Shown: positions 530 through 37,644 of the stretch, piece by piece | How positions within the stretch are numbered: position 1 is the stretch's first letter | Layout of the letters: each line of letters begins with the position of its first letter | IMG/VR virus record: IMGVR_UViG_3300025000_000055 | DNA from: a virus | Taxonomy: Duplodnaviria; Caudoviricetes | Length of the DNA: 64,000 nucleotides | Direction: 5' to 3' (one strand) | The notes under the pieces: generated by a model | The model's database searches: none | The model's input: the letters and a program-made list of their open reading frames with translations, nothing else | Told to the model about the DNA's origin: nothing | Position numbers and translations under genes: made by a program

Positions 530-803
530 ATATTTATTTTCACCTCCTTATTTTTCCTTATAAACTAGTGGAGTTTGGCACGGTATTGCCTGCTATCCAT
601 ATTTCAGGACCGTAGGTTCTCTTAGTCAGTGTTTTCGCTTATGGACATGTCATATAGACAAGACTTGTAATTGTCATACAAGTAATCTTATTTAACTGAT
701 ACCGTTAGCAAGTAATAATAAAATATTACTCACACCGCTTGTTAAGCGTTCACATAGAACTCGCTATATCATTACTGATACGCCGGACCTTGATGGTAGA
801 TTG
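1..803 (-). mobile_element. Group I intron in RNAP beta' N-half gene (5' part; 3' end outside window)
   Basis: Begins after NAD codon GAT; P1 exon CGGAU / intron GUCCG with U-G at the splice site; 43/45-nt block (581-625) shared with the nrdD intron; hosts GIY-YIG ORF. Confidence 0.9.
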
Positions 804-2039
804 ATCCGCATTTAAAACCTTTAATATTTGTATAGGTAAACTCATTGTATATTGATCTGTATTATCATTCTTAATATCAACTATTTTCATTAAAAGCATA
901 GATCCATAATTAATTGTAGGGTTTCTATTGATAAGAACTTTTGGTTCCCACTTCTTTAATAAATATTTCATTATTTCATATATTTTATTATTATAAACAA
1001 TGGTACCTTTATACCAATATTCATATGCTTCATTCTCAGAAATATCATTTATTCTAGAAACATGAGTTATTATCTCATATTTATACAATTCTAAAAATGC
1101 CAAATAACCTAATTTAATTTCATTTGCTTTTAAAACAGGATCAGGTATTACAACGCAGCGGGCTGAAAAATTAATTTTACCACCGAGAATCTCCCATTTG
1201 ATATGACCTTTTCTTTGATCTATCTGTTTAAATATTAAATAACATAATTCAATTAATTTCTTTTGAATTATACTAAGAATTTTATTCTCATCTATATCCC
1301 CCCAGTCTTTATTCTTTCTAGTTTCTATTAAGTCTCTATCTTTTAATAGATTGCTTAAAGAAACTATTGGATTATATTTCTTATCCATAGAATTATAGAA
1401 AAATGATTCTCCTTTAAATTGAGAGGGTCTCAATACAGATGAATAAACTGGAATACATGAAGCAAATACTTTATCCTTCTCTTTATATAATTCTTCAATC
1501 ATTTCAATCTTATTCTTCTTTTTGGCTCTATAATAATCCATTATTTCATCAAATCTTTCTTTGAACTCCATAATACCAATACCTTTAAATGGAGTTTTAC
1601 CTTGTTTATTAATTATATGACCGTCCTTAGTAAATTCTTTATCATATTCAATAATTTCAAGGAAACCCTTTTCTCCAATTATTGATTTTAACATCCTGTA
1701 AAATATTGGATGTATTATAAAATACTCACCTAATTTAATCCAACCAGTAATCTTTAAATCAACATCTTTAAATTTAACTATTGTACCACATATAGAACAT
1801 TCTTCTTCATCATATAATCTACCTTTTAACTCACCACATTCACAAGTATATCTTTCAGCAAATGCATCATCATCTTCAAAATCTGTAGCAAATAAAGGTG
1901 ATTGGATACCATATTTAGATTTCTTCTGCTTACCTTTAAAAGCAGGTTCTTTTATTTCAAAACCTTTTCCTATAATAAAATCCTTTTCACACTCCTCATC
2001 CCAATTTAATTTTACTAGTCTAACTTCATCATGTTTCAA
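804..2039 (-). CDS. rpoC: Phage multisubunit RNA polymerase beta' N-terminal subunit, exon 1
   Basis: Zn ribbon CECG...CSICG, FSARCVVIPDP, NRNPT, ends at NAD of the catalytic NADFDGD; ORF-track tail QSTIKVRR... is intron read-through. Confidence 0.92.
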
Positions 2040-2105
2040 ATATAATACACCTCCATTTAATTATCTTATTTAAAAGTTCTTAGACTTTTAAATCTCTACT
2101 AAAAT

Positions 2106-2114
2106 ATAATATAT
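2106..2114 (-). promoter_or_regulatory. Putative early promoter motif ATATATTAT (also 5829-5837, 21847-21855, 26140-26148, 32684-32692, 32706-32714, 35433-35441, 36471-36479, 36941-36949, 41429-41437 on minus; 62557-62565 on plus)
   Basis: Recurs in intergenic DNA, often just past terminators, oriented with the next gene; resembles AR9/phiKZ early promoter consensus; caveat: very AT-rich genome. Confidence 0.65.
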
Positions 2115-2127
2115 GTATAAAAAAAAT

Positions 2128-2162
2128 ATTGTTTATCAGAAAATTATATTCTGATAAACAAT
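2128..2162. terminator. Intrinsic terminator hairpin
   Basis: ATTGTTTATCAGAA / TTCTGATAAACAAT arms, T-run on minus strand. Confidence 0.8.
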
Positions 2163-2169
2163 AATAAAA

Positions 2170-2529
2170 TTATTGAATTTTAAAAGGAGTTTTTAACAAT
2201 TTAAATATATCTTTTACCATTACCAATAATATATGAAAATGATGTTCATAAAAATCATTAACACCAGTTTTTTCTATTTCCTCTTTAAAACCTTTCATAA
2301 TCTCACACTTATCTTCTTTATAGTTATAATCAAGGATTTCTAAAATTTGTTCTTTAACATTTCTCTTACAAATTTCTTTATTTTTTACACCAGCTGGAGT
2401 TACAAATACCTCAGTTTTTTTCATAATTTCTTTTAATATATTTTCATTTAATTCATTAACATTTTTTAAAAATACATTAAAGTCAGTGGTATTATTTATT
2501 TCTAAAATTAATTTTTTATTCTCACCCAT
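2170..2529 (-). CDS. Hypothetical protein
   Basis: 119 aa ORF with SD, in operon. Confidence 0.75.
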   Translation of the reverse strand: MGENKKLILEINNTTDFNVFLKNVNELNENILKEIMKKTEVFVTPAGVKNKEICKRNVKEQILEILDYNYKEDKCEIMKGFKEEIEKTGVNDFYEHHFHILLVMVKDIFKLLKTPFKIQ

Positions 2530-2554
2530 TTTTTCAACATCACCCCATTTTTAT

Positions 2555-2779
2555 TTATTCTTTCCAGTTCATATTCTCTTTAATTGTAGTTAATAATAGC
2601 TTTTCATATTCTTTTTTATTTTGTAAAACTTCTTCAATAGTATTATTTGAATGAACAAAAGCTATTACAGTTTCATGACCAATAGGATTTTTTAATACCA
2701 ATCTAGTAGTTGTTTTAGTAGTATCAACATATTTATTTGATACATCATGAACATCTATAAATAACTCAAAACCTATCAT
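2555..2779 (-). CDS. Hypothetical protein
   Basis: 74 aa ORF, SD GGAGGG. Confidence 0.7.
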   Translation of the reverse strand: MIGFELFIDVHDVSNKYVDTTKTTTRLVLKNPIGHETVIAFVHSNNTIEEVLQNKKEYEKLLLTTIKENMNWKE

Positions 2780-2802
2780 ATACCCTCCATTTAGAAAATA
2801 GT

Positions 2803-3204
2803 TTATACTTCGTTTTTCCTATTTTCTAATTCCATTAATGAGCGTTCTAACATTATTCTTTGAATCATATAAATTTCTTTCATATGATTTTCTTTTTCCG
2901 ATTCATATAAAACTATTAATATTTCTATTTCATTTTTTATCCAAATTGACAAATTTTTTATTCTATTATTAGCTCTAAATAATTCATTACTAAGTCTAGT
3001 ATTATGATCGTGAAAATGTTGTCTACTACGAATAAGTTGTTCTTTTGTAACATCTTTAAAAAGTTTATTTTCAATTTCAGTTAATTCTAAATCTGGTGTA
3101 GGAACATTACCAAATATTTTTTCAATTAGTTCCCAGCCTTTATCTAAAGCATTATTTATTTGTTGTTCAATTAAATCTTTATCAGCTTTATCATTAACAT
3201 GCAT
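2803..3204 (-). CDS. Hypothetical coiled-coil protein
   Basis: 133 aa ORF, SD AGGGGG. Confidence 0.75.
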   Translation of the reverse strand: MHVNDKADKDLIEQQINNALDKGWELIEKIFGNVPTPDLELTEIENKLFKDVTKEQLIRSRQHFHDHNTRLSNELFRANNRIKNLSIWIKNEIEILIVLYESEKENHMKEIYMIQRIMLERSLMELENRKNEV

Positions 3205-3227
3205 TTTATAACATACCCCCTTTTAAT

Positions 3228-3497
3228 TTATTTTTCGTTTCCAGCTATTATTCTTATATCCTGTGAAGGAACATAATCAAGTATAACCTGTTTATTTAAA
3301 AATTCATTTAATTTAGGCATACTGTCAAAAGAACTCTCAACCTTCATATTATCAGGATTTAGTAATAAAACATTATCGTTAATCTTATTAAATATAATTA
3401 TACGCTTTATATGATATATACCATCAATATATTGAATATAATCTCCAATATTAAAGGCATACTTTGTCTTACTACCCTCTCTTATAAAAACAGGCAT
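3228..3497 (-). CDS. Hypothetical protein
   Basis: 89 aa ORF, SD AAGGAG. Confidence 0.75.
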   Translation of the reverse strand: MPVFIREGSKTKYAFNIGDYIQYIDGIYHIKRIIIFNKINDNVLLLNPDNMKVESSFDSMPKLNEFLNKQVILDYVPSQDIRIIAGNEK

Positions 3498-3519
3498 AAG
3501 TTCACTCTCCTTTATTTTT

Positions 3520-4818
3520 TTAAATTATTTCTTTTAATAATAATTTTTCTTTATAAGTATTAAAACTTTTAACATGTTCATTTTTATTTTTAGTTAGAAT
3601 GTTATATGTTGTTTCAACCGCTTCTTCAATGGTTAAATCATTATTACATGCTAATAAATATTTGGTACCAGTCATGATTTCTTTTAGATTAGCCATAGGT
3701 AAATTATCACTATATTTAACAAAAAGTTCTATAACTGCATTATCACTATCAGGTTTATTATCATCTTTATAGACTTTATATTCTGATAATAATTTTCCAA
3801 TATTTCTATTTTGGAAAAATGCACGGCGTATATTTTCTGATGGGTTATCAATTTTATATGTGCGATCAAAACGACCAGATCTATTCATAAAGGCAGGATC
3901 AATATGATCAGGATAATTTGTTGTACCAATGATATACACTCCAGATTGAACATCAATACCATCTAAAATATTTAGAAATTCTGATCTATTTCTTCCACTA
4001 ATTATTGAATCAATATCTTCAATTATAATAATAGCCTTTTTACCATTTAGTGATTTAATTAATATTGATAAAATTTTAGGTATATCATTAATATTAGGGT
4101 TTATTACTATTTTAGAAATCCTAGGTAATATCCTGATAATTTCCCGTATCATAGCACTTTTACCATTACCAGGTTCACCATATAAAATAACCCCTCGCTT
4201 ATACGTAATTTGTAATTTTTTATACATATTATATGTTTCCTCTTTAAAGAATAAATCAATATCTTTCATAACTTCTGTTATTGTTGAATCTTCAGTAAAT
4301 ATAAGTTTTTCTTTAATAATTTTTTTCTTCACAATATCAGCAGGTCTCTTTTCATGATTAGAAGAATTAGAGATTTCAATATATTCTCTATTTCTACATT
4401 TAAAATCAATTTCCCGAAACATATTAGTATTAGTATCTCGTTGTAATATTATCTTTGCATTTTTTGAAAATGTTTCTAAATACTCAGTGTCAATTAAAAA
4501 AGTGCATCGAATATAATAATAACCATTAGCCGTATATAACACAATAGAATTAATTTTTTTAGATATAGCAATACGCTGAAACATATTAAAATTAGATGAT
4601 AACTCATAACCATTAATCATTTCTGGTTGAGGGAGAATATCAGGGTAATCATAAACATTTCCTATATTTTTAAATTTACATTCATGAAGGATATCTTTAA
4701 TAATATCTTCACTATGTACTTGAAAATCAACCTTTTGATATTTTTCTAAATAAACACTACGTTCAAACAATTCTTCATTAACTAAGTTAACAAGTGCTAA
4801 TTCCATGGTTTTATCCAT
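3520..4818 (-). CDS. AAA+ ATPase
   Basis: Walker A GVILYGEPGNGKS, Walker B IIIIEDID, GTTN, RSGRFD arginine finger. Confidence 0.9.
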   Translation of the reverse strand: MDKTMELALVNLVNEELFERSVYLEKYQKVDFQVHSEDIIKDILHECKFKNIGNVYDYPDILPQPEMINGYELSSNFNMFQRIAISKKINSIVLYTANGYYYIRCTFLIDTEYLETFSKNAKIILQRDTNTNMFREIDFKCRNREYIEISNSSNHEKRPADIVKKKIIKEKLIFTEDSTITEVMKDIDLFFKEETYNMYKKLQITYKRGVILYGEPGNGKSAMIREIIRILPRISKIVINPNINDIPKILSILIKSLNGKKAIIIIEDIDSIISGRNRSEFLNILDGIDVQSGVYIIGTTNYPDHIDPAFMNRSGRFDRTYKIDNPSENIRRAFFQNRNIGKLLSEYKVYKDDNKPDSDNAVIELFVKYSDNLPMANLKEIMTGTKYLLACNNDLTIEEAVETTYNILTKNKNEHVKSFNTYKEKLLLKEII

Positions 4819-4867
4819 TATTTATACCTCCTAAAAATTATTAATACCAATTAATAATTTTTTTCAC

Positions 4868-5323
4868 TTAAAATAATTTAACTAATTTTTCTAATAGTTC
4901 TTGATAAATATACCAATCCTTACAGCAATCTTCTTTTGAGTATCCCACTATACACTCCCCTATACTTGGAATTAAACCTCTTCCACCCATCGGACGTTCA
5001 TTAAATGGTAAACTACAACCTTGTTCTGTTAATAACATACACACACCACCCCAAGAGGGATCGACAATAGGTGCATTTTTATTTCTTATTCTAAGATATA
5101 ATGTACGGTCTCTATCCTTATCAAAAATATCACCGTCCCACCAATCAATTGATATATAGTCTTTTTCAATTAAATCCTTTAAAGTTTCAAAATCTATATC
5201 TTCGAAATCTTTAGGTGAAAAGTGACATCCTAAATTTTTACAACATTTACCACCACATTCAAAACATAATTTACTATTTTCATTATTACTTTGAAAGTTA
5301 TTTTCTATTTCTATATTTAACAT
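4868..5323 (-). CDS. YkgJ-like cysteine-cluster (Fe-S/Zn) protein
   Basis: CFECGGKCC...GVCMLL...GCSL..NERP pattern. Confidence 0.7.
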   Translation of the reverse strand: MLNIEIENNFQSNNENSKLCFECGGKCCKNLGCHFSPKDFEDIDFETLKDLIEKDYISIDWWDGDIFDKDRDRTLYLRIRNKNAPIVDPSWGGVCMLLTEQGCSLPFNERPMGGRGLIPSIGECIVGYSKEDCCKDWYIYQELLEKLVKLF

Positions 5324-5339
5324 AATAAAACCTCCTAGA

Positions 5340-5792
5340 TTAATTATAAAATTCTGTATATCTCCTAATAAAATTTCTTACTTTATTAAGTTCATCAATA
5401 GTTGGTGTAAGTATATTAATACTATTCAATGAATTTAAAAAATCTTCTTCTTCAAAATGTAATTCATATTGAGGTGAATTACAATCACCATATTCGAACT
5501 CAATAGTGTCACAATTTATTTTACCTGAAATATCAATACATGTTCCGTCAGGTTTAATACAATAAGCATGTACTAAGGCTTTACTATATGTGGTTTCTTT
5601 ATTTTGTTCATTAACAAATTCTGCTTCTAAATCAAATAAAAGTTTTATATTATAACCAAGTTCTAAATGAAGAGCTTGGGCGAATATATGACATTTCCCA
5701 TATAAATACTGTTCAATAAATTTTCCATTTCCTCCCATTACTCCATAAAATGAGTGTTGTTCCATAAATTTAATCATTCTTTCTAATCTCAT
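5340..5792 (-). CDS. Hypothetical protein, possible Cys-His-Asp papain/transglutaminase-like fold
   Basis: GKCHIFAQAL...HAY...DISG. Confidence 0.5.
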   Translation of the reverse strand: MRLERMIKFMEQHSFYGVMGGNGKFIEQYLYGKCHIFAQALHLELGYNIKLLFDLEAEFVNEQNKETTYSKALVHAYCIKPDGTCIDISGKINCDTIEFEYGDCNSPQYELHFEEEDFLNSLNSINILTPTIDELNKVRNFIRRYTEFYN

Positions 5793-5843
5793 TTTTCATT
5801 ATCTCCTATTTATTTTATTTTCATATTAATAATATATAAATTA

Positions 5844-5877
5844 AAAGATATATGATAATTAATTATCATATATCTTT
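5844..5877. terminator. Perfect 34-bp palindrome, likely terminator
   Basis: AAAGATATATGATAATT-AATTATCATATATCTTT directly after the nrdD stop. Confidence 0.75.
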
Positions 5878-5893
5878 GTCTTAATTATTATGA

Positions 5894-8316
5894 TTATACT
5901 CCATCAATATGCGTTCCTCTATCTTTAAGTTCTGATTTCTTAGCACTATTAAACATATTTATTGTACTTAAATATCCTGTAATTCTTCTTACTCTATTAA
6001 TGTCTTCAGAACTACAGCTTGGACATTCCTTAGGATATACTCCCGAATAATTACATGAACGGCAAAAATCAACTGGGAAATTAATCCCACCGTACCCAAC
6101 ATCACACTCTTTCATATATTTAATAATATTAATTACAGCTTCAGTATTATAAAGAAAGGGAGATGATGACTCAATATAAGTAATATGACCGGCATTACAA
6201 TACTTATGAAAAGACCCTTCCAACATAATTTTACTGAACCAACCAATATTATATCCTACTGGTATATGAAAACTATTAGTATAATAATCTTTATCAGTAA
6301 CCCCTGGAATGATTCCAAATTGTTTTTTATCAAGTCTTAAAAATCGACCTGACAATCCTTCAGCTGGTGTTGCTAATAGAACAAAGTTAAGTTTTCTTTT
6401 AATTGTTTCATTATCACAAAATTTTCTCATTAATTTTATAATACTTAAACCAAGTTCATATACATCAGTATCTTCTCCGTGATGTTTACCAGTTAAAGAT
6501 ACTAATGCTTCTGCAAGACCAATAAATCCAATTGACATAGATCCATGTTTGATAGATTCTTCTATCTTATCATTATAATCTAATTTGTTAGAATCTAGAT
6601 ATAAACCTTGACCCATAATAAAAGGCATATCTCTTACAAGTAGATTCTTCTGTATGTCATATCTATGATTAAGTTGATCAAATATAAGATTTGATTTACT
6701 TTCAAGTAATGTAAAAAACTTTTCAATACTACCTTTTGCTTTTATTGCAAGTCTAGGTAAATTTAATGTTGTAAATGATAAGTTACCTCTCTTATCTGTA
6801 GTTTCAGGTCCATTAATATTACCAATAACCCTAGTTCTACAACCCATATAAGCTACTTCAGCATCACCTGTGTATTGCTTATTAAAACTAGAGTCCATAA
6901 ATGAAAAAGTTGGATTTAATTTAGTACCAGCTATTTCACAAGCTAATTTAAATAAATCATAATTTGGATCTCCTGGTTCTACATTAACACCATCTTTAAC
7001 TTTAAAAATAATATTTGGAAAAATTGGATTTTCTCCCTTACCTAAACCGGCTTTATATGCAAGTAAAATATTTTTTGTCACTTTTCTTCCTGCGTCACTC
7101 ATATCAGTACCAATATTTAAACTACTGAAAGGTACCTGAGCTCCAGCTCTAGAATGCATACTATTTAAATTATAAATAAGAGCTTCACATGCTTGATAAG
7201 CCTCGTTATCATTAGCATCAACAAAAAATTCAGCCATATCCTTATCAAAGAAAGCAAATGATTGACCACCGTGCATATCCACTGTACCGCCTCTTTTGAG
7301 GTATTTCAAACGGGTTAGACTATATCATATACCTATTTTTTATATAGGTACCCTGGCACTTCGGATCGGGATTTTCACCCTTATTACCCCTACTCTACTC
7401 GCTTCGTGTATCAATGATACCTTATTTTCAACATCAGAAAAGATGTGTATAGCTTTCGATAGTCGTTAGCGTTTCTCTAATATTTTTAAAAATATTAGAG
7501 CTTACGACGGTATTACCTGCTATCCATATTTCAGGACCGTAGGCTCTCTTAGAAAGTGTATTCGTTACTATATAACTAGTACTTATTTAACTTTTACCGT
7601 TAGCCAGATATTATATCTGACACCCATCTATTGATGGTTCACCAGGTTATTCAATGTACATTACTGTACAAGGGAACAAATTAATTATTCTGAGCACTTT
7701 GTAAAACTATAGCCGCTAATGCAGTTGCACTACTTGTTCTTTTAGGCGGTCTAATCCAACCATGTCCATTATCAAAACCTTTAGTTAGTATTTCTTTTAA
7801 AGGTATTTGTAAACATGTTAGAGTTTTTCCATAAAAATCTAAATCATGTATATGAATATAACCTTCTCTATGGGCATTTGATATTTCTTCAGGTATCATT
7901 CTAGATAAATAAAATTTTCTTGAAGCTTCGCTTGCAATTTGTAACATTTTAGCCATTGGTCCAGTACCAATATTTGCATTTTCTCTTGAAGTTTCTTTTA
8001 TTATATCTTCCACACAATCCATTAATTCACTTTGGCCTTCTCTAATACGAGTTCTATTATTTCTATATAAAATATATGCTTTTGCTGTTTTAGCTTTCCC
8101 ATTATCAATTAAGACTGTTTCAACAACATCCTGTATGTCTTCAACATTATGTATATCTTTACCTAAATTTTCTAATCTATTATAAACTTCTAAAGCTAAT
8201 TTAAAAGAAGTTGAATTATCATTTCCTCCTAATGACTGAGCTGCTTTAAAAATACAACTAGCCACTGTTTCAATACTAAAATCAACTATTCTACCATCAC
8301 GTTTCATAACTTGCAT
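5894..8316 (-). CDS. nrdD: Anaerobic ribonucleoside-triphosphate reductase; join(7687..8316, 5894..7279), 671 aa after splicing
   Basis: ATP cone MQVMKRDGR, spliced QSAQN|DMHGGQS, YMGCRT, RGNLSFTTLNL, LATPAEGL, C-terminal Zn ribbon and glycyl radical loop RVRRITGYL. Confidence 0.95.
7280..7686 (-). mobile_element. ORF-less group I intron (407 nt) in nrdD
   Basis: 5' splice after U (CAGAAU, P1 with GUUC), terminal G, R-like CUAACGACUA and S-like AUGAUAUAGUCU; removal restores the frame. Confidence 0.93.
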
Positions 8317-8348
8317 TTATATTCCCCCTTATTTTTTAATTATAATTA

Positions 8349-8909
8349 TTACACAAAATATTTATAATAAAGCTCTTTGATTATTTCAGCATCCCATAAA
8401 GCATTATGTTTTAAAGCTTCAGAATTAATTTTTTTATCTAATAAATCTTCTCTTGTAACATTAAAAGCTTTACGAGCATCTTTATTAAAGTATTTGATTA
8501 GGTCATTGTTAATATCATAACATGCTGGACATACATTTTTAGGTAAGTCAAAAGCTGTACCAAATAAATCAATAAGTAATACAAAGTCATAATGACATAC
8601 ATCTGAAACAAATAAAATTTCTTCATTATTAAATTTATTTAACCATTTCTTTAATTCTATTACTATCTCTTTTTTACTACCATAAAAATAATAATCTGGC
8701 ATTTTTGCTTTTTGTTCAATAATATTTTTTCTATTTACCCATAATTTATCAATAACATTTTTTTGTATCCAATTATCTACTTGTGATTTATTATAATCAT
8801 TGAACTCAGCATAAAAGTTGTCATCATTTTCTGATATAATACCTAATGAAATTAGAGTAGTCTCCTTATGGAGCCCTGTGAATTCGCAATCAAAAAATAA
8901 TTTTATCAT
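8349..8909 (-). CDS. DEDDh 3'-5' exonuclease (Rv2179c/DUF5051-like)
   Basis: FFDCEFTGL, YDFV, HNALWDA. Confidence 0.85.
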   Translation of the reverse strand: MIKLFFDCEFTGLHKETTLISLGIISENDDNFYAEFNDYNKSQVDNWIQKNVIDKLWVNRKNIIEQKAKMPDYYFYGSKKEIVIELKKWLNKFNNEEILFVSDVCHYDFVLLIDLFGTAFDLPKNVCPACYDINNDLIKYFNKDARKAFNVTREDLLDKKINSEALKHNALWDAEIIKELYYKYFV

Positions 8910-8975
8910 AATTTATTCCTCTTTTTTGTATTAATCATCCAAAGTTGTTGTTTCAGTTAATATTTCTTTTAGGTC

Positions 8976-9314
8976 CTAATTATCTTTATCTTTTCCTTCT
9001 GTATTATTACTTATTGTTTCAATACATAAATCAATACATTTTTGACAAATAGAAGCATTTTCAGAATAAATAATAATATTTTCATCAGAATTCTTTTCCC
9101 CACAAAAAGAACAAAAAACACCACTTTCTCTATAACTAGCTTTTGTAGAAGTAATAAAAATATTTTTAAGATTAAATTTATTTTTTTCAACCCAATTTTT
9201 AAAAATATTAATAATATCTTCAATATACTTTTCTTCTGGAACTAAAATTTTTGAATCTAAATGTAATAATTTAGTATTTATATTACTATTTTTATTAATA
9301 AAAGGTATTTTCAA
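8976..9314 (-). CDS. Small protein with ClpX-type C4 zinc-binding domain
   Basis: FCSFCGE...SICQKCIDLCIETI matches the ClpX N-terminal ZBD pattern; no AAA domain. Confidence 0.75.
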   Translation of the reverse strand: MKIPFINKNSNINTKLLHLDSKILVPEEKYIEDIINIFKNWVEKNKFNLKNIFITSTKASYRESGVFCSFCGEKNSDENIIIYSENASICQKCIDLCIETISNNTEGKDKDN

Positions 9315-9335
9315 AATAATATTCTCCTTTATATT

Positions 9336-10379
9336 TTATTTATTTAACCAATTAACTAGTTGATTTCTTGATTCTATATTATCTAAAAAGAATTGAGCTA
9401 CACAACCACCACCACATCTCATTATTTTATCACATTCATTTACACATATTTCTGGTATTTTTCGTGTTCTTAAAAATATAAGAAGTTTATCATAATTCCA
9501 TATATTATATAAATTTGTTTTTAAAATATTATTAGGTGTTATAAAATTACCTAACCATTTAAATGCTTCACATGGAAATATATCACCTTTAGCAGATATA
9601 TTTAATTTATTAATACCAACTGAGCATGGTTTATTATTTTTATCATCAGTTATACAATTAAAAGGACAACCATATCTAATAGATAAATTTTTATATTTTT
9701 CATTACTAATTTTAATAGTTATTTCTTTTAATAAAGATTTCATATTATCCACACTAACTTTTAATTCATCATTATTTAAACACCTACCTTGTGAAACAAG
9801 TCTTAATAAACTTATTTTTTTAATACCAATATCATTAACTAAATCTATTAAATCTAAAAAATCAATATAATTTATATTTATAGGAACGAAATGAATTTCA
9901 GTTTCAATATTATATTTTAGACAACTTTTAATTGAATTTATAATAGTGTTAAACACATTTTTAATTTTAACAATTTTATATATTGTATCATCATTTGACC
10001 CATGTAAACTAATTACAATCTTATTAATATTTCTTTTAAAAAATAATAAAGTATCTTCAGATATAGATGATAATTCGTTATTATGATATATAATCCCACA
10101 ACTATAAACAGTAATGTGTAAACCTAATTTTTTAGCAAAAGAAATTATTTCTTTAAATTCAGGGTGAAGTAATGGGTCTCCACCTGATATGGATAAATTT
10201 TTAACTCCTTCAGAAACAGCATCTAATAATATATTTTTTACATCTGAAAATAATAACATATCATTACTCTTAGAATTAGCTTTAGAAGAACAATGAATAC
10301 AATTTAACATACATTTATTTGTTATTTCTATACATAAATTTTTTAAACCAATATCTGGGAACAACTGATACATTCTCAA
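9336..10379 (-). CDS. Radical SAM / SPASM domain protein
   Basis: EITNKCMLNCIHC, SGGDPLL, SPASM cysteines CSVG...FPCE...C..EC...RCGGGC. Confidence 0.92.
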   Translation of the reverse strand: MRMYQLFPDIGLKNLCIEITNKCMLNCIHCSSKANSKSNDMLLFSDVKNILLDAVSEGVKNLSISGGDPLLHPEFKEIISFAKKLGLHITVYSCGIIYHNNELSSISEDTLLFFKRNINKIVISLHGSNDDTIYKIVKIKNVFNTIINSIKSCLKYNIETEIHFVPININYIDFLDLIDLVNDIGIKKISLLRLVSQGRCLNNDELKVSVDNMKSLLKEITIKISNEKYKNLSIRYGCPFNCITDDKNNKPCSVGINKLNISAKGDIFPCEAFKWLGNFITPNNILKTNLYNIWNYDKLLIFLRTRKIPEICVNECDKIMRCGGGCVAQFFLDNIESRNQLVNWLNK

Positions 10380-34233: not shown

Positions 34234-34671
34234 TTATAATAATATTTCCTTTGAATCTAATATATACATCATATGAATAAATTGAGATATTATCTCTCCA
34301 AGTAATTCACAATACATTTCCTCATCTTTCCAATAATAATTATTATTTACACAATTTAATGTATCTATTTTACTAATTTTTCTTATATATTGAAATATAG
34401 CATGACCACATTCATGTGTAATTATATTTATATTACATTTTTCTATAGGAATGAGCACTTCTCCAATTTTATTTAATGGGATATTACCTTTATATATCTC
34501 TAAGTCTCTACATATTGCGTTAAAATCACATTTTTCATATCCTCCCGTACTATTATAATAATTATACATTGAATCATGAGAATTAAATATAAATACTTCA
34601 TAATATTTATCAGTTTTTTTAATATGATGTGGATATATTCCAAATACTTTAATTAATCCATCAATAACCAT
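34234..34671 (-). CDS. Putative zincin metallopeptidase-like protein
   Basis: ITHECGHAIF, downstream EEMYCE. Confidence 0.6.
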   Translation of the reverse strand: MVIDGLIKVFGIYPHHIKKTDKYYEVFIFNSHDSMYNYYNSTGGYEKCDFNAICRDLEIYKGNIPLNKIGEVLIPIEKCNINIITHECGHAIFQYIRKISKIDTLNCVNNNYYWKDEEMYCELLGEIISQFIHMMYILDSKEILL

Positions 34672-34736: not shown

Positions 34737-35336
34737 TTAATATATATTATTCCATATATTTATAGCTCTCAATCGTAATTCCATTGAAATATTAAAGAAG
34801 TAGGAATCACTTAAATTTTCTTTAAATAAATTGAGGTATTTAATTAAACCATTTTTCATATTACACATAAGAACCCATTGGTCTGCTGTAATTTCTCTCT
34901 GTATTGAAGAACTAAAATTTTTAGATAATTTAACACTATCATCTAAAGATGGAATTTTCTTATTTATTTCCATCCATTCAACTAACTCAGGAATTGCTAA
35001 ACCTTCTACATTCATTTCAATATGGCCAATTTCATGGGCTATTATTACATAAGCAACTTCTAAATCACTAAAAAACTTTATTACATCATATACCAATATG
35101 ATATAATCATAATTTACTTTATTTGCTTCAAATATTGTAGTCAATACCCTACTATCGATAATGTCTGTATCAATATACTTGGTATCTTCGATTAAATGCT
35201 CAGCAATTAATCTTTCCTTATTTTCAACCAATAATAACCTTAAGGATGTTTTAAAGAAACTACTATTTAATATCATTCCATTATCAGGATTATTGGGTAA
35301 ATTAAGTTCTATTGCTAATTGTTGTAATTGATTCAT
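34737..35336 (-). CDS. Putative M48-like zinc metallopeptidase
   Basis: IIAHEIGHI and REITAD. Confidence 0.7.
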   Translation of the reverse strand: MNQLQQLAIELNLPNNPDNGMILNSSFFKTSLRLLLVENKERLIAEHLIEDTKYIDTDIIDSRVLTTIFEANKVNYDYIILVYDVIKFFSDLEVAYVIIAHEIGHIEMNVEGLAIPELVEWMEINKKIPSLDDSVKLSKNFSSSIQREITADQWVLMCNMKNGLIKYLNLFKENLSDSYFFNISMELRLRAINIWNNIY

Positions 35337-35723
35337 ACTATTTCTCCCCCTAATTAATATATCATTATTTGATATATTATAATAAGTATATTTATTCCCC
35401 CTATTAGTGGAATAATATTTATTACTATATTAATAATATATACTTAATATTAATAGAAATACTAAAAAAATAAATACCTATATAATTGTAACATATACAT
35501 TTATTATTTATTCAACTTCATTAAATTTAATATCTACTGCTATATAATCAGTTCCATTTTCAATAACTTTATAAACTGTACCAGAACATATGGTATATAG
35601 CTTTTTTACCACTTCTTTAAAGTATTCATCTCTATTTTTATAACTAAAAGCAGAATGATCTGAATACAAAACATCCTTATATGATAATCTTTTTATATTA
35701 ATATAACCTTTATAAAAAAAAAT

Positions 35724-35755
35724 ATAAAGGTTGTTAAATATTTAACAACCTTTAT
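35724..35755. terminator. Perfect 32-bp palindrome, likely terminator
   Basis: ATAAAGGTTGTTAAAT-ATTTAACAACCTTTAT. Confidence 0.78.
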
Positions 35756-35775
35756 TAATAAATTATCATACACTA

Positions 35776-36204
35776 TTATTTATAGTTTAAATCACCTTCT
35801 TCCTGCTCTTCAATTGGAATAGGACAAGGTACAAAATAGCTCTCATTAAGAGTATGGATATTTAAACCCTTACATAAAAATTTACCACGTTGTCTAGCTG
35901 AAGGGATATTTACAAATTCAATAATTTTAAAACCGGAACGTAGAAGTTTCAATGCATAATTTATAGGAGCGACAATACCTATAACTTTACATTTTGTAAC
36001 CTCTTCTATCTGTTCAACAATATTATCATTAAAGATAATAGTGTGCTTTTCATGACTTGTAATACCCACACATTGCAAAGTGGCAATCTGCCCATTAGTT
36101 AATTCATGTTGACTAAACCAATGGAGTTTTTTCAAATTCATAGAGTCAATACAATTATTAAATGGTTTACTACAATCTTTTTGAAACTTACTACATATAA
36201 ACAT
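35776..36204 (-). CDS. Hypothetical protein, Csx15/Csx16-like motifs
   Basis: WFSQHELTNGQ and VIGIVAPI...G...IPSARQRGKFL. Confidence 0.45.
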   Translation of the reverse strand: MFICSKFQKDCSKPFNNCIDSMNLKKLHWFSQHELTNGQIATLQCVGITSHEKHTIIFNDNIVEQIEEVTKCKVIGIVAPINYALKLLRSGFKIIEFVNIPSARQRGKFLCKGLNIHTLNESYFVPCPIPIEEQEEGDLNYK

Positions 36205-36223
36205 TTTTTATCCCCCTTATTTT

Positions 36224-36439
36224 TTATTTAGGTTTAATAGTTAAATAATTTTTATCTATTCTACATTTATTTATTTTGGTTGTTAAATTATATTTATCAC
36301 TATCACTACAACGATAAATATAATACACAACATTTTCTAAAGAGGCTCTTTTTTCAGCCTCTATTAAAACTTCACATAAATCAGTAGAAGAAACATTTTT
36401 CTTTCTTCTATAATTTTTACCTAATAAAGAGAACTTTAT
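36224..36439 (-). CDS. 71-aa ORF with apparent AUA start (not in ORF track)
   Basis: SD AGGGGTGA, ATA start, open frame IKFSLLGKNY...TIKPK fills the gap between the early motif at 36471 and the next SD. Confidence 0.55.
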   Translation of the reverse strand: MKFSLLGKNYRRKKNVSSTDLCEVLIEAEKRASLENVVYYIYRCSDSDKYNLTTKINKCRIDKNYLTIKPK

Positions 36440-36505
36440 TTAAATCACCCCTATATTATTATATTACTTTATAATATATATTTATAAGGGTTAAATAAAC
36501 TAAAA

Positions 36506-36960: not shown

Positions 36961-37644
36961 TTAATATTTTTTTCTTCCTATGTACATTATTAGACCATAA
37001 TACCCACCTGTCATTCTTTTTGGTTCTTTTATATATAGATCATTTAATGCAATAATTTCAAAATCACTAAAATATTTTTTCATTTCATTTTTAGTAATAG
37101 GTATTTGTTTAAAATTTAAATAATTAATATCATTTTTTGATAATTCCTTATTTGATAACATTTTATTTTTTTGATTAATATTAAATATTGGATCATTTTC
37201 AGAAAGTGTATTAATAAGAACTATCCCATTATAAATTAAACCATTCTTAATATTATTTATAAGTTTTTCAATATTATTTTTTGATAAATAAGATATTGTC
37301 ATTGAGCATATAATTAATGAATATGTATTTATAGGTATATTAAAAGATGTTATATCCTCTGTTTTAAATACACATCTAGAATTACGATATTTGTTTTCAA
37401 GTTCCTTAATTATAACATTAGATATATCTATACCTTCAATTGAAAATCCATTTTTTAATAGAAAATCTACGTTTCTACCAATACCTATTCCTAATTCAAG
37501 TACTTTTCCTATAGGAATATATTTTAAATATTCTTGTAATAATATATCTGGAATAGGCTCAAAATAATGATTCCCAGTAGTATAAATATTGTTATAATGG
37601 TTTTTAATATTATTTATTTCATTTCCATCTGATAATGAAAACAT
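36961..37644 (-). CDS. Class I SAM-dependent methyltransferase (TehB-like)
   Basis: VLELGIGIGRN, GIDIS, LIICS, GIVLI. Confidence 0.85.
   Translation of the reverse strand: MFSLSDGNEINNIKNHYNNIYTTGNHYFEPIPDILLQEYLKYIPIGKVLELGIGIGRNVDFLLKNGFSIEGIDISNVIIKELENKYRNSRCVFKTEDITSFNIPINTYSLIICSMTISYLSKNNIEKLINNIKNGLIYNGIVLINTLSENDPIFNINQKNKMLSNKELSKNDINYLNFKQIPITKNEMKKYFSDFEIIALNDLYIKEPKRMTGGYYGLIMYIGRKKY

Follow-up and report, generated by a model that had tools for sequence, protein, structure and literature searches.

A stretch of 64,000 nucleotides (the window) from a virus of the Caudoviricetes (Duplodnaviria), IMG/VR virus record IMGVR_UViG_3300025000_000055, carries on its minus strand a small open reading frame (ORF), termed P0001, which a preliminary description had proposed to encode a viral ring nuclease of the Csx15 or Csx16 type, i.e. 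an anti-CRISPR directed against type III systems. The source virus record comprises 187 kb, is rated complete and has a G+C content of about 23%; its RNA-polymerase beta genes are of the multisubunit type and are split, with an HNH gene interrupting them. The features found at the P0001 gene are as follows.

35776..36204, minus strand: ORF P0001, 142 amino acids (stop codon within the interval), from the ORF call and from homologues.
36211..36218, minus strand: Shine-Dalgarno-like sequence AAGGGGGA, 6 nt before the ATG at 36204, read from the sequence.
35714..35755, minus strand: intrinsic-terminator-like hairpin with a T-run, 20 nt past the stop codon; 14 bp stem and 4 nt loop (35724-35755).
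36205..36505, minus strand: AT-rich non-coding spacer of 301 bp on the 5' side of the gene, a probable promoter region.

P0001 is a real gene, present as an intact ORF in a single copy in the phage genome. Met1 is taken as its start because the Shine-Dalgarno-like sequence lies at the proper place before this codon, and the terminator-like hairpin with its T-run was found at one site, against 0.1 expected in shuffled sequences. The 301-bp spacer contains a TATATATTAT motif at 36471-36480 and a sigma-70-like TTAACA-17-TAGAAT pair at 36286-36258, and probably includes the promoter. Having its own Shine-Dalgarno sequence, terminator hairpin and spacer, the gene therefore looks self-contained and monocistronic. 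It had been placed in an early island, a location that our analysis did not establish; what we observe is the end of a long minus-strand block, with small unannotated ORFs around the gene.

A word-indexed search retrieved 9 close homologues of P0001, with 55-77% identity, and an exhaustive phmmer search extended the family to at least 68 representative clusters (50% identity) at E ≤ 1e-3, with 40 at E ≤ 1e-10. From the family alignments (A1, A2, and A3; conservation percentages were calculated over 50 members), a conserved core extends from about residue 24 to residue 128, in which S31, H33, G47, F58, V78, P80, L87, L88, E96, F97, N99, R104, F109, C111, and G113 are near-invariant. The core opens with the nearly invariant pattern [WF]xS[RQ]HxLTxGQ (consensus FISRHxxTxGQ), S31 and H33 being at least 90% conserved, and it is followed by a tail of the type CPxPxEEQEE. 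In P0001 itself, the opening WFSQHELTNGQ corresponds to residues 29-39, the segment VIGIVAPI has its first residue at 74, and IPSARQRGKFL occupies residues 100-110. The protein can be divided into the following parts.

36139..36204, minus strand: N-terminal extension, residues 1-22, with Cys4, Cys11, and Cys18; lineage-specific and outside the core according to the alignments, with low model confidence (below 50) at residues 9-22.
35821..36138, minus strand: conserved core domain, residues 23-128, with a predicted Rossmann-like (CARF-like) minimal fold, from AlphaFold2 and structure neighbours.
36088..36120, minus strand: motif I, WFSQHELTNGQ, residues 29-39, in which the Ser31-x-His33 loop connects the last residues of strand 1 to the first turn of helix 1.
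35866..35919, minus strand: strand 4-turn-strand 5 block EFVNIPSARQRGKFLCKG, residues 96-113, with conserved E96, F97, N99, S102, R104, G107, F109, C111, and G113.
35779..35826, minus strand: C-terminal tail CPIPIEEQEEGDLNYK, residues 127-142, a conserved Cys-Pro followed by acidic EEQEE, from the alignments.

Several members carry additions to this core. Cys-rich N-terminal extensions, mutually unrelated and with the look of zinc knuckles or ribbons, are present in P0008, P0010, P0013, P0041, and P0045 as well as in residues 1-22 of the window protein, and appear to have been gained repeatedly on the same core in different lineages. P0042, P0046, and P0063 have C-terminal extensions of 100-150 amino acids instead. 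One metagenomic protein of 218 amino acids, P0040, starts with a MoaD/ThiS-type ubiquitin-like domain ending in ...HIAGG, which is joined by a Lys/Arg-rich linker to the family domain; this is the only MoaD/ThiS fusion among the 68 clusters.

The family is mostly viral, its recovered homologues being of metagenomic or viral origin apart from a single cellular copy, and most of its nearest clusters in the ESM Atlas are labelled as viral. No homologue was found in GenBank (cultured) phages or in PLSDB plasmids by tblastn and megablast, and the only match among PHROGs was a marginal one to an unnamed group (E 0.02). The family is undescribed and is missed by screens with hidden Markov models (HMMs); as Pfam, NCBIfam, and PADLOC all leave it unassigned and neither cultured phages nor plasmid databases contain a homologue, we regard this as a true annotation gap.

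The AlphaFold2 model of P0001, built on alignment A1, has a mean predicted local distance difference test score (pLDDT) of 82, with about 90 in the core, and a predicted template-modelling score of 0.77. It consists of the elements b1 (26-30), a1 (37-45), b2 (50-54), a2 (62-69), b3 (74-77), a3 (81-89), b4 (93-101), b5 (108-117), and b6 (122-126). The 50 top-ranking representatives among its VIA-align neighbours are crowded with sensor domains for nucleotide signals. They include the CARF domains of Can2 (7bdv and 8bao), Cdn1 (8z4i), Csm6 (9w3u), VC1899 (1xmx), SiRe_0806 (9jxw), and Can1 (6sce), and SAVED domains scoring 3.6-3.9 (Cap14, 9om7; 3TM-SAVED, 9wq2, in a second look), while Argonaute MID domains score up to 4.8. 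The nearest entries of the ESM Atlas, to be read only as leads, are viral clusters with the PF27247 'MJ1673' domain and the N-terminal domain of the CRISPR-associated TIGR02221 proteins (feature scores 0.78-0.80; template-modelling (TM) scores 0.57-0.63). As a control, a genuine Csx15 protein, P0080, was modelled with 35 homologues (pLDDT 92.6) and searched against the same fold library. It retrieved the same classes of neighbours (CARF, SAVED, and MID, with Z up to 5.1) and shared the entries 8z4i, 9om7, 1yvu, and 2yha with P0001. No Csx15 crystal structure was returned by this search; since even a genuine Csx15 model retrieved none of them, 9TEU, 9TET, and 9YLU, which are present in the PDB sequence copy, appear to lie outside the fold library.

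Csx15 proteins open with LNFS(G)HPLTxxQ, and their b1-a1 loop is the 'Motif I' of Rossmann-type nucleotide binders (PMC13148439). S9 and H11 of PfCsx15 line the site for cyclic tetra-adenylate (cA4), a ligand that PfCsx15 sequesters and CliCsx15 cuts, and the H13A substitution in CliCsx15 abolishes ring-nuclease activity; the site is completed by H82/H90, F106/Y113, and R116/R120/R123 between stacked dimers (PMC13148439). The opening FSHPLTxxQ, given for Csx15 in the preliminary description, agrees with the sequences aligned in the Csx15 publication (PMC13148439 Suppl. Fig. S4). The likening of WFSQHELTNGQ to it is borne out as well, as this segment matches motif I in the same b1-a1 loop and hhalign places H33 on the Csx15 His. 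The second pattern of that description, VIGIVAPI..A...G...IP...RG..L, which had been likened there to the C-terminal half of Csx16, describes the P0001 sequence loosely: all of its residues are present, but G91 follows A84 by 7 positions rather than 4 and RG follows IP by 4 rather than 3. Membership in a Csx15- or Csx16-like family was not upheld, as no HMM of Csx15, Csx16, or Csx20 (NCBIfam), nor PF09652 or PF08960, matches any of the 50 members, and PADLOC gave none of these for P0001. Foldseek gave nothing significant for the P0001 model (no match at E ≤ 1e-3 in the PDB or BFVD), and hhalign gave a marginal match to Csx15 in the N-terminal half.

For the profile comparison, a search seeded with a 78-residue fragment of HXF69998.1 yielded 1511 Csx15 proteins, 35 of which were aligned (A4). 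Untrimmed, the family and Csx15 gave one local match, residues 32-89 on Csx15 7-81 with His on His and the family segment IxIVAP..LL on ILVIPP..LL of Csx15 (P 0.007); with trimmed alignments the score was 23.6 (P 0.002). The N-terminal halves alone reached P 3.6e-4 with a probability of 37%, and over the whole domain the P values spanned 0.002-0.014; across these comparisons the HH probabilities were 6-37%. Reversed profiles scored 10-12 versus 23.6, and shuffling in 6-column blocks attained 23.6 in 1 of 60 cases. The score was no higher when secondary structure was included. We conclude that P0001 has half of its fold and the catalytic loop in common with Csx15, on statistics that are marginal, and that it is not a member of the Csx15 family.

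Besides the source phage, family copies were located on a viral contig of 166 kb (L001), on 18 metagenome contigs, and in Syntrophomonas palmitatica, the only cellular carrier, where the gene lies on a mobile-element-like contig. Across the 21 loci we found no conserved neighbour gene and no linkage to CRISPR at any of them, and two scans of viral sequence for related loci detected no family member. In S. palmitatica, a mobile-element-like block extends over positions 547-10326 of NZ_BBCE01000023.1 (locus L002). It encodes, in order, a DUF6094 methyltransferase, DUF6927, an SNF2 helicase, the family member, a RadC-type JAB protein, and an N6/N4 DNA methylase, followed by a Prok-E2_D-like protein, a SEC-C protein, a small protein ending in ..KQG, and a ThiF-type E1. 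The block thus contains a PRTRC-like set of ubiquitin-like, E1, E2, and JAB genes beside genes of anti-restriction type. The same organism carries a type III-A locus (L055; G001:C20, 9895-19877) with cas10/csm1 (743 bits) and four ORFs assigned by position as csm2-csm5. After these come cas6, interrupted arrays in which ATTTGAACGGAAGGACCCCTTTAAGGGGACGGAAAC is repeated at least 26 times, and then cas1.

CARF, SAVED, and Csx15 hold cyclic oligoadenylates at the C-terminal edge of the sheet, and metal-independent ring nucleases employ Ser, His, Lys, or Arg at that edge. As the conserved polar residues of the family follow strands 1, 3, and 4, they are expected on this same edge of its parallel sheet, the canonical ligand edge, and the protein is thus most simply read as one that would bind cyclic oligoadenylate and stand alone. 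Judging from the topology, Ser31-x-His33, Pro80, Asn99/Ser102/Arg104, and Phe109 would gather in one pocket of a protein that is probably dimeric. We tentatively propose that P0001 is a stand-alone viral interceptor of cyclic oligoadenylate, acting as a nuclease or as a sponge, and we place the probability of this assignment somewhat short of an even chance. Such a protein would be a small Rossmann-type protein of CARF/Csx15-like character, expressed by the phage as a self-contained unit, that captures cyclic oligoadenylate, most likely cA4, made by Cas10 of a type III CRISPR system which its host may possess. If it cuts, His33 would act as the catalytic His, like H13 of CliCsx15; if it is a sponge, it would sequester the cyclic oligoadenylate as PfCsx15 does. 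CARF-activated effectors would then stay off, which would give P0001 an anti-type III CRISPR role. Any activity of P0001 on cyclic oligoadenylate, and with it ligand, catalysis, and anti-CRISPR role, is something that we purely infer. The broader proposal, advanced with more reserve, is that jumbo phages and other uncultured viruses encode a new and widespread family of minimal CARF/Csx15-like proteins, whose Ser-x-His loop might destroy or sequester cyclic oligoadenylate; they could form a new class of anti-type III CRISPR proteins with a ligand-binding mode that differs from the Arg-lined filament of Csx15.

The proposal is supported by motif I, the marginal profile match to Csx15, the order of secondary-structure elements, the classes of structural neighbours, the ESM Atlas leads, and two sequence hallmarks of CARF domains. 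Further support is circumstantial. The gene travels alone, and is met with in the accessory regions of a range of viruses and within a mobile-element block of anti-restriction-like character; its only cellular carrier, S. palmitatica, possesses a type III-A csm operon with arrays; and the two large phages examined (the source phage and that of L001) are devoid of AcrIII-1.

Other results weigh against the proposed interception of cyclic oligoadenylate. Searches of P0001 against Pfam, NCBIfam (E ≤ 10), PADLOC, and PDB sequences gave nothing relevant, and for 50 relatives the Pfam (E ≤ 1) and NCBIfam (E ≤ 10) searches were empty except for the MoaD/ThiS domain of one fusion, the Pfam library searched being one without PF27247 (MJ1673). 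The hhalign statistics for the family and Csx15 are marginal. With larger alignments (78 x 120 sequences) P was 0.014, so the signal does not grow, and the C-terminal halves gave no signal (P 0.14, below column shuffles). A Csx15 HMM built here and run with --max attained at most 8.6 bits on any family member. The likeness of the predicted fold to that of Csx15 is one of element order, through strand 5, and of neighbour classes. Moreover, parts of the Csx15 site have no equivalent: H33 is the sole conserved His of the family, the second His of Csx15 (H82 in Pf, H90 in Cli) having no counterpart because helix 3 falls short by about 3 residues at the place of the Csx15 'ELH', and the Arg cluster R116/R120/R123, situated in the C-terminal Arg-rich helix that forms the head-to-tail cA4 sandwich, is missing. 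Conversely, the family has a strand 6, an acidic tail, and the conserved Cys111 and Cys127, and these Cys residues and the tail are not accounted for by the proposed mechanism. In S. palmitatica, no CARF effector was seen beside the csm genes in the 20 kb examined, and the type III-A spacers gave no match to the fetched family loci. The support is computational throughout, with key statistics that are marginal.

The same fold and pocket could also receive another ligand, such as the cyclic di- or trinucleotides of CBASS, the gcADPR (glycocyclic ADP-ribose) of Thoeris, the cyclic CMP or cyclic UMP of Pycsar, or some other nucleotide, and P0001 would then be an anti-defence sponge or phosphodiesterase unconnected with CRISPR. 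This is unlikely in our view, even if CARF domains score no better with the P0001 model than do Argonaute MID domains and the SAVED domains of CBASS effectors (Cap14 and 3TM-SAVED), the arginines clustered around cA4 in Csx15 are absent, and family members come from viruses and environments of very different kinds. In sequence, however, the one specific similarity is to motif I of Csx15, a motif that binds and cuts cA4, and Pfam and PADLOC revealed no similarity to the sponges Tad1, Tad2, Acb2, and Acb1. Convergence or chance might account for the resemblance to Csx15, in which case P0001 would be a small Rossmann-like protein with a non-immune viral role, for instance in nucleotide metabolism or regulation, and its conserved Ser, His, and Cys residues would serve another chemistry. 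The marginal level of all similarity statistics would be explained in this way, as would the presence of Cys111, Cys127, and an acidic tail that find no counterpart in ring nucleases, and the lack of CRISPR linkage at every locus. Nevertheless, the motif agrees with that of Csx15 in its sequence, its register, and its place in the fold; a control CARF family gave P 0.5; the conserved residues are placed by the topology in the loops after strands 1, 3, and 4, the canonical ligand edge of Rossmann-like proteins; and the variable, accessory-type context, which extends to a mobile-element block of anti-restriction-like appearance, speaks against such a role too. We consider convergence doubtful on balance; if it did occur, the family would be one more conserved viral protein without a known function.

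A link with ubiquitin-like or sulfur-carrier systems (MoaD/ThiS, E1/ThiF, JAB), in which the family would act as substrate or adaptor or in Cys-dependent transfer, appears very improbable. It is suggested by P0040, in which an N-terminal MoaD/ThiS domain ending in Gly-Gly is fused to the family domain, by the S. palmitatica gene, which adjoins the RadC-type JAB gene and has Prok-E2_D-like and ThiF genes 3-4 kb away, by weak fold matches to the E1 enzymes UBA5, MccB, and Cap2 and to ThiF clusters (TM 0.44-0.50), and by the near-invariance of Cys111. Yet the fusion is a single case in 68 clusters, the source phage has no ThiF gene, no such neighbour is found at the other 20 loci, and the similarity to E1 enzymes is that of a generic Rossmann core.

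Other features of the loci were noted in passing. Just downstream of the P0001 gene, two adjoining small ORFs on the minus strand (34234-34671 and 34737-35336) contain HExxH-type motifs (THECGHAIF and IAHEIGHIE) and have only weak matches (Peptidase_M48, E 0.014; unnamed PHROGs, 5e-5 to 7e-5); the two are possibly small accessory proteins of a metallopeptidase-like kind. Two genes upstream of P0001, the minus-strand ORF 36961-37644 encodes an S-adenosylmethionine-dependent methyltransferase (Methyltransf_25/TehB-like, E 1e-11; PHROG 'tRNA methyltransferase'). On the 166-kb viral contig (L001, 12554-15732), a gamma-glutamyl-cyclotransferase-like ORF is followed a few genes on by a Cys-rich ORF of 489 amino acids, both recognized by eye, and a 1069-amino-acid ORF at another locus (L044, 3182-6391) has, by eye from its translation, the look of an intein-containing ribonucleotide reductase. 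The decamer TATATATTAT occurs in 12 copies, versus 6.6 expected, at these positions.

5829, 21847, 26140, 32382, 32706, 35433, 36471, 36941, 39015, and 41429, minus strand: copies of TATATATTAT.
34741 and 62556, plus strand: copies of TATATATTAT.

At least 4 of these copies lie 30-55 nt upstream of minus-strand starts (5792, 21808, 26096, and 36910), where an element of a phage promoter would be expected; the copy that precedes the P0001 gene is 267 nt from the ATG.

One of the known systems closest to P0001 is Csx15 (CliCsx15, PDB 9TEU; PfCsx15, PDB 9TET; the Csx15 domain of Cash, PDB 9YLU). Both P0001 and Csx15 are small stand-alone proteins of about 125-140 amino acids, and the order b1-a1-b2-a2-b3-a3-b4-b5 is common to the P0001 model and the Csx15 model. 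They also share the motif I residues F-S-x-H-x-L-T-x-x-Q, in which the His is catalytic in CliCsx15 and the S-x-H spacing is that of the two crystallised proteins, and a hydrophobic strand 3 that ends in Pro and is followed by an 'LL' helix. By eye, R104 in the b4-b5 turn and F109 at the start of b5 parallel the [RK]-[FY] of Csx15. The two differ in where they are encoded, the P0001 family by viruses and mobile elements and Csx15 in CRISPR loci.

CARF domains have been defined by a six-stranded Rossmann-like core in which strands 5 and 6 form a hairpin, by a residue with an alcohol group where strand 1 ends, and by a conserved K/R immediately after strand 4, often within [DN]x[ST]xxx[RK] (PMC4012209). 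P0001 has residues corresponding to both sequence hallmarks, S31 after strand 1 (26-30) and R104 with N99 and S102 after strand 4 (93-101), all at least 90% conserved, but its motif II has the spacing N-x-x-S-x-R. The family further resembles CARF proteins (Crn1, Can2, Csm6, and the TM1812/MJ1673 type) in a predicted Rossmann-like sheet ending in a beta-hairpin, in weak structural matches over about 100 residues, and in the viral MJ1673-domain clusters nearest to it in the ESM Atlas. It differs in that its predicted six-stranded core has no helix 4 between strands 4 and 5. In profile comparisons with 26 N-terminal domains of the canonical CARF family TM1812 (TIGR02221), hhalign found no similarity to the P0001 family (P 0.52-0.8), and the control comparison of Csx15 with the TM1812 N-terminal domain gave P 0.27.

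The 'SRH' that the preliminary description gives as the opening of Csx16 would be equal to the consensus in the P0001 family. Csx16 (PF09652) was matched neither by the 50 members, at E ≤ 1 in Pfam, nor in the source phage genome, and it was found in 0 of 401 genomes sampled from one phylum. No family member matches any NCBIfam model of Csx16 or Csx20 either (E ≤ 10), the comparison with these two being one by HMM only. Csx16 and Csx20 are likewise small CARF-like proteins; they have a five-stranded sheet, have been shown to cut cA4, and are reported from a handful of phage genomes (PMC12409355). PF08960 (AcrIII-1) is absent in the 50 members, in the source phage, and in the phage of L001.

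About eight ring-nuclease families are known, few of which have viral members, namely AcrIII-1, AcrIII-2, rare viral Csx16, and Csx20. Such viral ring nucleases are an established strategy (PMC12409355), and a survey of 28,114 phage genomes reported only AcrIII-1, Csx16, and Csx20 (PMC12409355). If our proposal is correct, small CARF-like interceptors would be commoner in viruses than HMM-based surveys suggest. A P0001-type protein would be a new anti-CRISPR tool to switch off signalling by cyclic oligoadenylate and would help to show what in the Csx15/CARF scaffold is required to recognize this ligand. AcrIII-1/Crn2 (DUF1874) and AcrIII-2, a viral SAVED ring nuclease, belong to folds and families different from that of P0001, but they resemble it in the proposed role, that of a virus-encoded, metal-independent, and His-dependent destroyer of cA4. 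The P0001 family would then be one more viral ring-nuclease-type family, sharing the catalytic loop and half of the fold with Csx15, and a variant of the known viral strategy of ring nucleases and sponges rather than a new principle.

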